Source: a virus (taxonomy: Duplodnaviria > Caudoviricetes). Taken from it: 64,000 nucleotides of DNA. A program made the translations under genes and the position numbers. Location of the stretch: positions 96,001 to 160,000 of IMG/VR virus record IMGVR_UViG_3300029288_000001. One strand, given 5' to 3'. Below the pieces are notes generated by a model. That model had not been told where the DNA came from and made no database searches. It saw only the letters and a program-made list of their open reading frames with translations. Of this stretch, positions 12,921-19,708 are shown one piece after another; position 1 is the stretch's first letter; every line of letters starts with the position of its first letter.

Positions 12921-14888
12921 TTACGCTACTACCGAGTTATGTTTAAGTAGGTTTATGATCGTATCTTTTTCTAGCTTTTCCAACGATAAGTCTATGTCGC
13001 ACCCTTCGCTAGTATCCACGAGAATGGCACCTGCGTTCTGTAATACTTCTGCTAAAGTTATTTGGTTCTCGCACGAGTGGATAAGAGATTTCGTCGCGTT
13101 TTTAACATATTCCGTGTTTTTCAAGGCTCTCGCGTTTCCCATTTCAAACGAGGTTATATAAAATCTACAGCGATCCTCTTCTTGAACTATTAATCCAAGA
13201 ATCTTTTGTTTTACATTTATGCTACACCCGATCTCCGCGATCATATTGTTGGGATTTACTACGAAGTTTCTGCTTTCTTCTAGAACCTTCTGTTTCGACA
13301 CGAACAGTTTAAACGGAACTTCTATTTTGTTATAATCGCTAAAATTGAAGTAGTTTAATCCGAGCGCGAAGCTACACGGAGAACCAGACTTGATAAAAAA
13401 CGCTTCTGAAGCCCCGTTCTTTCCAGAAGCGTCGGTCATGTCACCAGAGAATAATACTTTCCTATCGGAACTTCTATAGAAGGCGTTCCATCCTATTTTA
13501 ACGCCGTCAAGGGACTGTAACGATAAATCGAGGTCAATTCTGTTTCTGCTTACATTGTTCCAATTAACTCCTACTGTTATACCTGTGGGAGCTTCTACAT
13601 ACGACATCGAAGGTAGGTTTCCGACCATCTGTTTCTCGGTAGCGGGAACCGTATATACGATATTATTTGGAATATAGATCTTCTTACCGTTCACATTCGT
13701 TTTAATGTCCGAAGCTATGGAATCTAACACCATTTTGAGAGCGCTGTCGTATGCCGCAGAAACGAAAAAAGCGAAGTTCTTCGCGTAATCGGTCGCGTAA
13801 GCTTTACCGTTTCTTATCTTGTAGAGCATAGAAGTTGGTTTCATTAGTCTATATCGTAACGCTTGAGCTAATCTAACTTTTCTAAACACATTCGCCGTGG
13901 GTAGAGCGCGTTCTAGGACTGCCTGCCATGGTTTACCGTTTTTTACGAGGCTTGTTATAGTATCTAATGGAGATATGGGAGCGTTAACATTGTGGAGTTT
14001 CGCGAGTTTTCTAAGTCTATTTATGAGATGCCTGATTCTAGGGTCGGGATTTGTCTTAAACGCTAAGAAAAGCGGTTTAAATCGGTAGAAAATAGACGAG
14101 AGCACTATGAGTCTTTGTTTTCTAAGAGTATATTCTTGTTGTATATACTTACACATTAAAGGATAAAGGTCTACGGGAGAAATCTTTAACGCTTCTATCG
14201 TTTCCTTGTCTTTGATCAAGAGCGTTTTTCCAATTCGTTTATACACGCACATTCTAAGAAACTCTACGGGATCGGAAGGAACTAATCCAAGCTGATCGCT
14301 TACGATGATTTTAACTTCTCTGTTCTTTATGGATTCCACATTTTCTTTGGTTAACACGCCAAAAGTATTAGAAACCGTAATCACATCGTCAATGGTCTGT
14401 TTACTGAGCGCGATTCCCGAGGCTAATAACTCGAGCATCTTCTTCGCGATCTCGTCTTTCGTGTATCCCTTTATTAAGGTTAAACTGATCTCCTTTACAT
14501 CTACCTTTGGTATGTCTAACGCTTCTACGGGAATGTAAACATTGTTCTGATCGTATATTCCGAGCGACTCGTAACCGTAAGTGGTGATATAATGAAATAT
14601 TTGTTCTACCACCAATTGAAACAAGCTCGCCGTTGCCACCTTATTCCACGACTTGTGGAAGGTCGCGTTCATCTGTTCTTTAGTTAATCCTAGGGTGCTA
14701 GACACATCTTTTATTATAGAGCGCAGTTCTCCGATTGTATAATTACCATACACATCAGGAGAGAATACGAAACCGCGTTCTATGGTTTCTTCTAAAATCT
14801 CCTCGTTGATACTTGCCTTCTTTCCATCGATGTGTTTATCGATCGGAACTGCTTTAAACAATCTAATTAACGATTCCATATTCATCAC
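12921..14888 (-). CDS. ROT/TROVE-like helical repeat protein with C-terminal TerD-like domain
   Basis: NATFHKSWNKV...EQIFHYITTYG N-terminus; C-terminal RIDLDLSL...IGWNAFYR...LFSGDMTDA...GASE is TerD-like; matches the Prok-RING_4-associated architecture without the RING. Confidence 0.7.
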   Translation of the reverse strand: MMNMESLIRLFKAVPIDKHIDGKKASINEEILEETIERGFVFSPDVYGNYTIGELRSIIKDVSSTLGLTKEQMNATFHKSWNKVATASLFQLVVEQIFHYITTYGYESLGIYDQNNVYIPVEALDIPKVDVKEISLTLIKGYTKDEIAKKMLELLASGIALSKQTIDDVITVSNTFGVLTKENVESIKNREVKIIVSDQLGLVPSDPVEFLRMCVYKRIGKTLLIKDKETIEALKISPVDLYPLMCKYIQQEYTLRKQRLIVLSSIFYRFKPLFLAFKTNPDPRIRHLINRLRKLAKLHNVNAPISPLDTITSLVKNGKPWQAVLERALPTANVFRKVRLAQALRYRLMKPTSMLYKIRNGKAYATDYAKNFAFFVSAAYDSALKMVLDSIASDIKTNVNGKKIYIPNNIVYTVPATEKQMVGNLPSMSYVEAPTGITVGVNWNNVSRNRIDLDLSLQSLDGVKIGWNAFYRSSDRKVLFSGDMTDASGKNGASEAFFIKSGSPCSFALGLNYFNFSDYNKIEVPFKLFVSKQKVLEESRNFVVNPNNMIAEIGCSINVKQKILGLIVQEEDRCRFYITSFEMGNARALKNTEYVKNATKSLIHSCENQITLAEVLQNAGAILVDTSEGCDIDLSLEKLEKDTIINLLKHNSVVA

Positions 14889-14900
14889 ATTAAATTAAGA

Positions 14901-15010
14901 GGGCGGGAAGTAGGTTTTTGATTTGTCAGTCAAGTGTTAGGAACTTCCTATGCCCATTTGTGGCGGAGAGTAGATTCTCGTCTTGGGATTGGTAGGAACT
15001 CTCTTTGCCA
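14901..15010 (-). ncRNA. Two tandem covarying stem-loop units directly upstream of the TROVE-like/TerD gene
   Basis: TGGC AAA GAGAGT TCCTA-N19-CT ACTCTC C GCCA and GGGC ATA GGAAGT TCCTA-N24-CT ACTTCC C GCCC. Confidence 0.7.
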
Positions 15011-15014
15011 CTAT

Positions 15015-15060
15015 ACTTATTCGAGGATTCGAACCCCTACATCCCAATGAAAAAATAAGT
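15015..15060 (-). ncRNA. Degenerate tRNA-like element
   Basis: ACTTATT...AGGGG TTCGAAT CCTCG AATAAGT: 7-bp stem plus canonical T-loop, no D or anticodon arm. Confidence 0.45.
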
Positions 15061-15088
15061 GGTTTACACATTATAATTTACTCCTTTT

Positions 15089-15262
15089 TTATTTAAATAA
15101 CTTTTTCTTCAAAAACAAAATTTTTATGCCTTCTACAGGGCAACTCTCTTTGGAACATTTGGCTTTTGGATTGCCTCTATGATTGCATGTTCCGCTGAAC
15201 AAATTATGGTACGGACAATCCGCTATTTCTAACCCAAAGTATTCCGTTTTTTCCTTAACCAT
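15089..15262 (-). CDS. 57-aa Cys-rich peptide (paralog 1)
   Basis: MVKEKTEYFGLEIADCPYHNLFSGTCNHRGNPKAKCSKESCPVEGIKILFLKKKLFK, translated by hand; paralog at 22329-22502. Confidence 0.7.
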   Translation of the reverse strand: MVKEKTEYFGLEIADCPYHNLFSGTCNHRGNPKAKCSKESCPVEGIKILFLKKKLFK

Positions 15263-19105: not shown

Positions 19106-19708
19106 TTAATCTATCGTTCGTGATATTTTATTTTCCAGATCATATTTTCGATGGCAAGAACGATGTGCCCATTGGAAGTCATTAATATCGTCTTTATACT
19201 CGCCCGATATATTTGATAGTTCTAATTCAGTCTTTCCATAAAAATCTTTAATATCGTTACATATTTCGCATCTCTGTGGCTTGGGCTTATTTATCGTCAT
19301 TCTATAATGCAGTCCTCCATATTTCACATTAGGCTTCCAATTTGGGTTTGACTCTCCTTTTCGTTTGCCTTTGCCTGATTTACTAAGGTTCTTTTTATGT
19401 TCCTCTGAAAATACTATCCCTTTTCTTCCTTCGCTTATGTTTTTCCTAGCTTGTTCAGATCGCTTCTTTCCAGTGTTTGATCGTCTCATTTTTTCAATTG
19501 TTTCGATTGGTATTTTCTTTCCTAGATTAATTTGCCTTAATTTCTCTTTTGTTTCTTCCGTGTGTTTCTTTCCAGTTGCATTGTTCCTTGCTTTTGTTCG
19601 ATGGTTCTCTTGAAATTCTTTATACTCTGGTAAATCGTGCCATCTACGATGGGCACACATTGCTCTTCTGGAATCAAATTCCTTATTACAAATATCACAG
19701 ACTACCAT
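19106..19708 (-). CDS. Free-standing homing endonuclease (C2H2 finger + NUMOD3 + HNH-like)
   Basis: CDICNKEFDSRRAMCAHRRWH; GKKHTEETKEK/GKKRSEQARKN NUMOD3 repeats; CEIC...RSCHRKYD. Confidence 0.8.
   Translation of the reverse strand: MVVCDICNKEFDSRRAMCAHRRWHDLPEYKEFQENHRTKARNNATGKKHTEETKEKLRQINLGKKIPIETIEKMRRSNTGKKRSEQARKNISEGRKGIVFSEEHKKNLSKSGKGKRKGESNPNWKPNVKYGGLHYRMTINKPKPQRCEICNDIKDFYGKTELELSNISGEYKDDINDFQWAHRSCHRKYDLENKISRTID

Follow-up and report, generated by a model that had tools for sequence, protein, structure and literature searches.

A 64,000-nt stretch of a virus of the Caudoviricetes (positions 96,001 to 160,000 of IMG/VR record IMGVR_UViG_3300029288_000001, hereafter the window) carries two similar hairpins, referred to as units, just upstream of a gene for a 652-aa protein. 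The gene and both units lie on the minus strand, and coordinates are window positions unless another identifier precedes them. The units belong to an RNA family which is widespread and near-constantly linked with the gene, as Y RNAs are with Ro60. Comparative sequence analysis suggests, with a probability of roughly 0.6, that the hairpins are genes for small Y-RNA-type RNAs or pieces processed from a leader, that the 652-aa protein is their dedicated partner, and that the pair functions in tRNA or RNA repair. Such a pair would operate much as Ro60 does, but with a different protein. Systems of this kind are already known; what is new are the protein partner and the recognition motif.

The hairpin motif and its linkage to the gene

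The motif consists of a 4–6 bp outer stem, a 3x1 internal loop (A-N-A opposite C), a 6-bp inner stem ending in GU and a loop starting with UCCUA. Unit 1 (14959..15012, minus strand) reads UGGC-AAA-GAGAGU / ACUCUC-C-GCCA around a 26-nt loop. Unit 2 (14899..14957, minus strand) reads GGGC-AUA-GGAAGU / ACUUCC-C-GCCC around a loop of 31 nt. The stems and loop proper occupy 15010..14961 and 14955..14901, respectively, with a spacing of 5 nt. This shared architecture had been described in a first-pass annotation of the window, and its positions and sequences are confirmed, with scores of 48.6 bits (E 8.9e-12) for unit 1 and 47.0 bits (E 2.8e-11) for unit 2 under a covariance model, R1, built from 103 units. 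Both loops also show the reported invariant TCCTA and CT, with UCCUA at the start and CU at the end of the RNA, which leaves 19 variable bases in unit 1 and 24 in unit 2. The reported distance of 12 nt to the start codon is correct for the earliest possible start, GTG 14888, but is 21 nt for the likely start, ATG 14879. Similarly, the 4-bp outer stem holds in the window, whereas in the family it is often 1–2 pairs longer; the column pair 2-79, a flanking pair outside the selection criteria, is paired in 76% of units, with the types AU, GC and UA.

The predicted folding energy of unit 1 is −11.3 kcal/mol (z −1.58), and 13 of 200 shuffles are equally stable. For unit 2 it is −14.3 kcal/mol (z −3.13), a stability reached by none of 200 shuffles. 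Thermodynamics by itself is poor evidence for the window units, and the comparative evidence is decisive. The compensatory stem changes first seen between the two units recur across the 103 units used for R1, where 11 of the 12 pairs show double-sided changes and 93.8% of cells are paired, compared with 72.3% in shuffles. Sliding the partner strand lowers the pairing to 35–52%. An independent set of 104 R1 hits gives the same picture, with double changes at 11 of 12 pairs and 94.6% of cells paired, against about 72–76% in shuffles of both sets; the alignment of this second set was fitted to R1 and hence leans toward the model. The consensus is GGC-A(U/A/C)A-NNNNGU-UCCUA. R1 matches only the two window units, both in the 64-kb window and in the whole 224,826-bp phage genome, a molecule with terminal repeats. 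The window units were assigned to no Rfam family at the gathering cut-off or at E<=10, the sole match being mir-276 at chance level, and the motif belongs to no Rfam 15 family.

The first hint of a linkage came from homologues, 27–29% identical, in three named phages. Synechococcus phage S-CRM01 contains five units upstream of the gene and one just downstream. S-CBWM1 has one unit upstream of the gene and another inside a tRNA array 2.5 kb upstream. In Phage Phass-1 (OQ749652.1), six tandem units (L002 6098..6564) lie 1.3 kb downstream of the gene, immediately followed by a tmRNA gene (L002 6572..7010, 77.9 bits). Existing annotation overlies some of these arrays. A hypothetical coding sequence (CDS) annotated at L002 6106-6405 overlaps the Phass-1 units and is probably no gene, and g173c of S-CRM01 (L001 2785..2931), a small minus-strand CDS over the unit array upstream of g174, is probably spurious. 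Five units, one of them a YrlA-like tRNA mimic of the type described below, fill the apparent 475-nt 'gap' that separates tRNA-Glu from g174 in S-CRM01.

A wider viral set comprised 80 IMG/VR loci kept from 125 confirmed relatives. The loci were found with an alignment-based search; a single-protein query of the loci gave no matches. A strict motif pattern recovered 209 units on the gene strand of these loci and 4 on the other. Among the 75 loci having enough upstream DNA, 72 contain 1–8 units within 900 nt upstream of the gene (no unit in three loci, one in 13, two in 23, three in 28, four in six, six in one and eight in one). The three loci missed by the pattern are L019, which has three units by covariance model, L026, where units are found downstream only, and L034, where they lie 1.3 kb upstream. 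Because the strict pattern itself required pairing, a sequence-only anchor, A.A....GTTCCT, was also used. It has 215 occurrences on the gene strand against 6 on the opposite one. For 181 of the 215, a correctly placed partner sequence is complementary at 10 of 10 positions, which holds for none of the 215 once the downstream DNA is shuffled, and the base at the bulge is C in 178 of the 181.

The linkage was reproduced in prokaryotes and from the RNA side. One genome per species was scanned, and the best 80 of 199 relatives, none of them used for R1, were kept. These loci come from Chryseobacterium and other Flavobacteriia isolates, Ktedonobacter, planctomycetes, cyanobacteria, Desulfobacterales and many metagenome-assembled genomes (MAGs), archaeal ones included. 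Every one of the 147 R1 hits in them is on the gene strand, and almost all are less than 500 nt upstream of the gene. Collecting the upstream regions of homologues, counting units and building a model, the check proposed with the first-pass annotation, placed units in 75 of 80 prokaryote loci beside the 72 of 75 viral ones. Two of the five uncovered prokaryote loci are without upstream DNA; the other three are L116, L117 and L121. The RNA-side pattern GGCATANNNNGTTCCTATTAAA matched 16 IMG/VR stretches, of which 11 lie directly upstream of a homologue. Another (L092) is a four-unit array in a tRNA cluster, with the gene about 10 kb away on the same contig, and the remaining 4 are not units by R1. 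A search of 101 whole genomes from the family to which Chryseobacterium gregarium belongs detected the RNA in three genomes and the protein in exactly those three, where the two lie side by side.

An alternative is that the hairpins are only cis-acting operators in an mRNA leader, which repress or time the translation of their own gene with no free RNA or ribonucleoprotein (RNP). The last unit is located 9–31 nt before the gene in most loci (median about 27 nt; 21 nt for the likely ATG in the window) and no terminator-like site was found between the window units and the gene, both of which fit an operator. A cis-regulatory leader is, however, expected in the 5′ untranslated region only, and detached units occur in Phass-1 (six, near the tmRNA), S-CBWM1 (one), L092 (four), L026 (downstream only) and L034, some of them in tRNA or tmRNA clusters. 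Arrays of up to eight different units would be odd for an operator, as would distal modules that mimic tRNA and copies which are tRNA-shaped with open acceptor ends. An exclusively operator role is thus quite unlikely, although autoregulation may coexist with a role in an RNP. The first-pass proposal of an uncharacterised RNP with a constant stem and a variable, guide-like loop is partly supported: the constant covarying stem, the varying distal part and the linkage to the gene fit an RNP better than a simple operator, while the guide-like loop is not supported.

Variable loops and tRNA mimicry

Across 172 distinct units of viral loci, the loops fall into recurring classes, where the first-pass annotation had seen unrelated sequences. 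One class is short and A/U-rich, and many of its members hold UGG in a small hairpin. A second is a GC-rich hairpin capped by a tetraloop, and a third combines a T-arm with a hairpin. The fourth is long (76–137 nt) and contains, in this order and between the two stem strands, a T-arm, an acceptor-like closed hairpin and a D-arm. From its sequence, this long-loop class is read as a permuted tRNA mimic of the type known from YrlA, a bacterial Y RNA. Its units score 35–50 bits with the Rfam YrlA family (RF02553) in S-CRM01 and in 7 of 11 further loci searched. The gathering score of 69 bits is reached by no unit, and the window units give no match. The permuted tRNA-like domain is present in some units of L001, L011, L058, L059, L061, L064 and L069.

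The second arrangement is found in RNAs of approximately 110 nt, which score 42–57 bits with the Rfam tRNA model and have a normal acceptor, D-arm and T-arm. Here the motif, closed at its outer end, is grafted onto the anticodon stem, and the acceptor ends are open. Four such tRNA-shaped motif RNAs are located at L187 8708-8816, L015 1302-1412, L072 987-1103 and L155 1004-1117. Common to both arrangements is that the UCCUA strand runs in the direction of the T-arm and that the 3′ strand of the stem is entered from the D-arm. The motif accordingly sits at the anticodon-arm position of a tRNA-like body.

The relationship of the loops to tRNA is one of likeness. When 159 loops of 15–58 nt were compared with 187 pooled tRNAs, sense words of at least 10 nt were shared by 27 loops, against 13.8 ± 3.7, and those of at least 12 nt by 8 loops, against 0.4 ± 0.6. 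Antisense words were at chance level (15 loops against 16.7 ± 4.3 for 10-mers and longer; 1 against 1.1 for 12-mers and longer). Mimicry of the anticodon loop was considered and rejected. Hairpin loops of 7 nt are enriched (31 against 8.3 ± 2.9), but most of them are T-loops (TTCGATT, TTCGAAT), for which reason they are better described as pieces of tRNA arms.

These results bear on the proposal that the variable loops are guides which pair with target RNAs (tRNA or mRNA) in a programmable RNP. The observation most favourable to guides is that the loop of unit 1 pairs with the phage tRNA-Pro(UGG) (48516..48587) at 15 of 16 positions, 14 of them Watson–Crick and one G–U, in a duplex that runs from the D-stem side of the tRNA through the anticodon. 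Its energy is −26.8 kcal/mol, compared with −18.2 ± 2.7 for shuffled loops, and about 1% of 200 shuffles are as good. The loop of unit 2 has nothing notable with the phage tRNAs, its best value being equalled by 41% of shuffles, and the complementarity of the window loops within the genome, outside their own locus, is near chance. As two loops were tested against six tRNAs and no general antisense signal exists, the match of loop 1 is probably due to chance. Many loops are, moreover, closed GC hairpins with tetraloops or tRNA arms. Guide loops as a general property are rejected on the antisense result, and a programmable RNP is extremely improbable.

It could also be proposed that the units are processing substrates, in which intron-like or permuted-tRNA junctions are cleaved by the protein and religated into tRNAs by RtcB, a member of the tRNA-splicing ligase family. 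RtcB is encoded next door in Flavobacteriia, and the copies include RNAs that resemble permuted tRNAs as well as tRNAs into whose anticodon loop the motif is inserted. Most units, including both in the window, are nevertheless without tRNA parts, and the Pfam and fold searches recognised no nuclease fold in the 652-aa protein. Maturation of an intron or a permuted tRNA was rejected in its own right, as, judged from the sequences of the tRNA-shaped copies, excising the motif would produce a loop of at least about 20 nt in place of the 7-nt anticodon loop. A role as processing substrates is very improbable.

The partner protein and its relation to Ro60

The gene for the partner protein extends from 12921 to 14879 (minus strand, stop codon included), within an open reading frame (ORF) that is open from GTG 14888. 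ATG 14879 is the likely start since a database copy is identical at 652 aa and the relatives align from MESLIRLF. An AlphaFold model computed from 32 sequences (pLDDT 81.7, pTM 0.81) predicts a mostly helical N-terminal domain of no recognised family (residues 1–396; 13692..14879, minus strand). It is followed by a β-sandwich (residues about 425–600; 13080..13607, minus strand) and a small acidic C-terminal part with predicted α/β secondary structure (residues 601–652, pI 4.4; 12924..13079, minus strand). Residues 1–420 are basic (pI 9.5), with clusters of invariant K/R in the alignment of relatives. The β-sandwich has a TerD fold by Foldseek (E 1.8e-4). The first-pass annotation had named TerD and was right as to the fold, although the Pfam TerD model (PF02342) has no match at E<=1. 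A weak NCBIfam match, RING_SCO0854 (E 0.007), falls in the same region. Known TerD proteins (PDB 3ibz, 2qz7, 2kxt) are single-domain, calcium-binding stress proteins of about 190 aa, whereas the 652-aa protein has this fold as one of its domains and is not matched by the Pfam TerD model.

Searches of Pfam, PHROGs and NCBIfam gave no family for the protein, even at lax thresholds, and sequence searches of the PDB gave no relative among solved structures. The protein atlas lists unnamed viral clusters only, apart from weak rows with Prok-RING or TerD. The family itself is large. It comprises 1,949 proteins at E<=0.001 among 7,998 candidates scored, and at least 1,395 cluster representatives at 50% identity, of which 860 have E<=1e-30. 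In BFVD, uncharacterised proteins of Campylobacter virus IBB35, Campylobacter phage CP21 and Lactobacillus phage LpeD resemble the 652-aa protein in structure over the full length (Foldseek E 2.4e-17 to 2.5e-12 for IBB35 and LpeD, 2.9e-06 for CP21; TM about 0.22–0.48). The closest relatives in sequence (up to 49% identity) are on contigs binned as archaeal MAGs (L103-L109, L116, L127, L151), which are labelled Nanoarchaeota, Promethearchaeota, Pacearchaeota and the like. Full-text literature searches gave no description of the motif or of the protein family; the protein is possibly mentioned in Burroughs and Aravind 2016 (NAR 44:8525).

The description of the protein as TROVE-like, also made in the first-pass annotation, found no support. 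For TROVE (PF05731), Pfam gave 0 families at E<=1, and the PDB profile search no Ro60 at E<=10. Ro60 was listed neither by Foldseek for the full or the N-domain model nor in the N-domain VIA search or a repeat search. With hhalign, the probability was 0.1% for both family profiles against a TROVE profile made from Chryseobacterium and Bythopirellula Ro60 and their relatives, a shallow profile of 12 sequences, 10 of them Chryseobacterium-like. The C-terminal domain, where Ro60 has a vWA domain, has the TerD fold and no match to vWA_Ro60 (PF25045). The consensus unit does not contain the Rsr-binding motif GNCGAAN0-1G / CGAA, and no TROVE gene was found at E<=10 in this phage genome, next to the units or elsewhere, nor in the 5 other phage records searched. 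The 652-aa protein is not a recognisable member of the Ro60/TROVE family, and nothing supports the term TROVE-like; a very remote kinship is possible.

The likeness to Ro60 systems lies in the design of the RNAs and of the loci. In the Salmonella rsr-yrlBA-rtcBA operon, according to excerpts of Chen et al. 2014 (PMC4201824) and Hughes et al. 2020 (PMC7790460), Rsr (the bacterial Ro60) is encoded with YrlA and YrlB beside rtcB. The motif GNCGAAN0-1G / CGAA, by which YrlA is bound by Rsr, is located in a stem-bulge (excerpts of PMC4201824 and PMC12135203). As far as these excerpts describe the Ro60/YrlA system, the new one resembles it in its tandem small RNAs beside a protein gene and in a constant stem-bulge-stem with a varying distal module, and at least some of the new units are, like YrlA, apparent permuted tRNA mimics (T-arm, closed acceptor, D-arm). 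Similar to the rsr operon as there portrayed, the new pair adjoins rtcB and other RNA-repair genes in Flavobacteriia, in the same place as rsr and the Y RNAs. It differs from the YrlA of those accounts in the constant motif, which is GGC / A-N-A opposite C / NNNNGU-UCCUA in place of GNCGAA, and from Ro60 in a protein with no detectable TROVE and a TerD fold in place of vWA. A phage precedent also exists. The excerpted text of PMC12135203 reports that the phiRo60 protein of Thermus phage phiLo engages the host PNPase and binds Yrl1 and Yrl2, two Y-RNA-like hairpins encoded upstream of its own gene. To the extent of that text, the two systems share a phage-encoded pair with two hairpins immediately upstream of the protein gene. 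In phiRo60 the protein is a canonical ring of HEAT repeats and vWA, the RNAs carry CGAA, and binding and PNPase recruitment have been shown, whereas the new pair is known from sequence.

These likenesses could be taken to mean that the protein is a very divergent Ro60/TROVE homologue in which vWA was replaced by TerD, with the units as divergent forms of YrlA and YrlB. The question is one of ancestry more than of mechanism, and it was judged with the same shallow TROVE profile. Where both systems adjoin, each has its own RNA type. A Bythopirellula chromosome carries the gene, immediately preceded by one unit, 1.8 kb from a true Ro60 gene (TROVE and vWA_Ro60). The latter is adjoined by two YrlA-like RNAs, which score 52.1 and 36.5 bits, and by over 30 tRNA-model matches, and R1 does not match these YrlA-like RNAs, even with filters off. 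The two systems can therefore coexist. A divergent Ro60 is an unlikely explanation. The Bythopirellula island (L186 10200..17900), which has its tRNA-model matches in one array and also a PcfJ-like gene, may be a prophage or mobile element.

RNA-repair neighbours and the proposed mechanism

The genomic company of the gene points to RNA repair. In 23 Flavobacteriia loci RtcB is encoded immediately upstream of the gene, and in one further locus it is encoded downstream. The cluster of C. gregarium (L187 5574..16565) contains, in this order, a divergent WYL-WCX regulator, RtcB, a tRNA-shaped motif RNA, three units, the gene and an RlaP, followed by SIR2, an R2K ATP-grasp, a Thg1-like enzyme and a second RlaP. 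tRNA or tmRNA genes are found within 1.5 kb in 20 of the 80 viral loci, and in S-CRM01 and S-CBWM1 the gene lies inside tRNA arrays. The phage studied here encodes an RlaP-family nucleotidyltransferase outside the window (G000:C1:58954-59352; 42.8 bits, cut-off 23). To judge from these neighbours, the RNA–protein pair probably serves tRNA repair.

The proposed mechanism begins with one transcript that would start at a promoter-like site (15070..15097, minus strand) and carry a candidate tRNA-like core, both units and the mRNA. The site consists of TTTAAA, 16 nt and TATAAT, matches the consensus at 10 of 12 positions and would start the transcript at the tRNA-like core; such sites number 12 in the region against 10.0 expected, and the consensus match is its sole basis. 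The candidate core (15013..15060, minus strand), which was seen by eye and is uncertain, lies directly 5′ of unit 1 and is without an anticodon arm. Its parts are an 8-bp acceptor-like stem (ACUUAUUU/GAAUAAGU), a small CAU-UGGG-AUG hairpin and a T-arm-like GGGG-UUCGAAU-CCUC. The units would then be released as small stable RNAs, a step suggested by units that lie among tRNA and tmRNA genes at other loci. The basic helical domain of the protein is predicted to bind the constant stem (GGC / A-N-A bulge opposite C / NNNNGU, then UCCUA). The variable module, tRNA-like or of another kind, may act as a handle which recruits or competes for tRNA-handling enzymes, the candidates being the RtcB ligase, the RlaP nucleotidyltransferase, the Thg1-like polymerase and processing nucleases. 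Such a particle would work in the repair or in the quality control and surveillance of damaged tRNA and other RNA. In phages with their own tRNA genes, it might keep the tRNA supply intact during infection.

Several observations weigh against this proposal. The units adjoin the start codon, as cis-acting leaders do. Both window units are of the short-loop kind and lack the tRNA-like module, including its permuted form, and the candidate core upstream of them folds no better than shuffles (z −0.44) and was called by neither ARAGORN nor Rfam. The N-domain, folded and searched alone, gave no convincing fold match and no recognised RNA-binding fold, and to our knowledge TerD domains are not RNA binders. 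RtcB was not found in this phage, nor within 1.5 kb of the gene in any of the 80 viral loci, so the repair context comes from bacteria, and mostly from one family. No unit lies within 1.5 kb of the gene in the prokaryote loci L116, L117 and L121, which have enough flanking DNA. A canonical TROVE gene lies on a different contig of C. gregarium (L183 841-2382); as this species and Bythopirellula possess a true TROVE protein, the new protein is no simple replacement of Ro60.

The genes around the locus in the window are uninformative on function. A 57-aa cysteine-rich ORF (15090..15262, minus strand) just upstream of the promoter-like site has no family match. Amid small unknown ORFs there are an HNH endonuclease gene (6956..7594, minus strand) and a NUMOD3/homing-endonuclease-like gene (19106..19708, minus strand). 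Five tRNA genes, for His, Glu, Pro, Ile and Cys, are spread over the window.

A broader reading is put forward tentatively. The pair may represent a second, Ro60-independent class of Y-RNA-type RNP in large phages and several bacterial phyla, in which a TerD-domain protein reads a constant bulged stem, while an exchangeable distal module, often a mimic of the tRNA elbow, attracts tRNA-handling enzymes or acts as a decoy for them. For phages it could be a counter to host defences that cleave tRNA, by which the tRNA set of the phage stays functional. Ro60 with its Y RNAs is the one RNP known to us in which a protein holds small RNAs by a constant stem and the opposite end of these RNAs imitates tRNA. 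If the proposal is true, a second, sequence-unrelated protein family with its own RNA motif has the same modular RNA design and the same repair neighbours, and such an RNP design arose or was kept more than once. Cultivable strains of Chryseobacterium carry the system, which makes direct testing possible. A large family of unknown proteins (at least 1,395 clusters, as counted above) would thereby receive a name and a role that can be tested, and an RNA family missing from Rfam 15 would be added. For phage biology, it would provide a candidate tRNA-protection device beside phage tRNA arrays.

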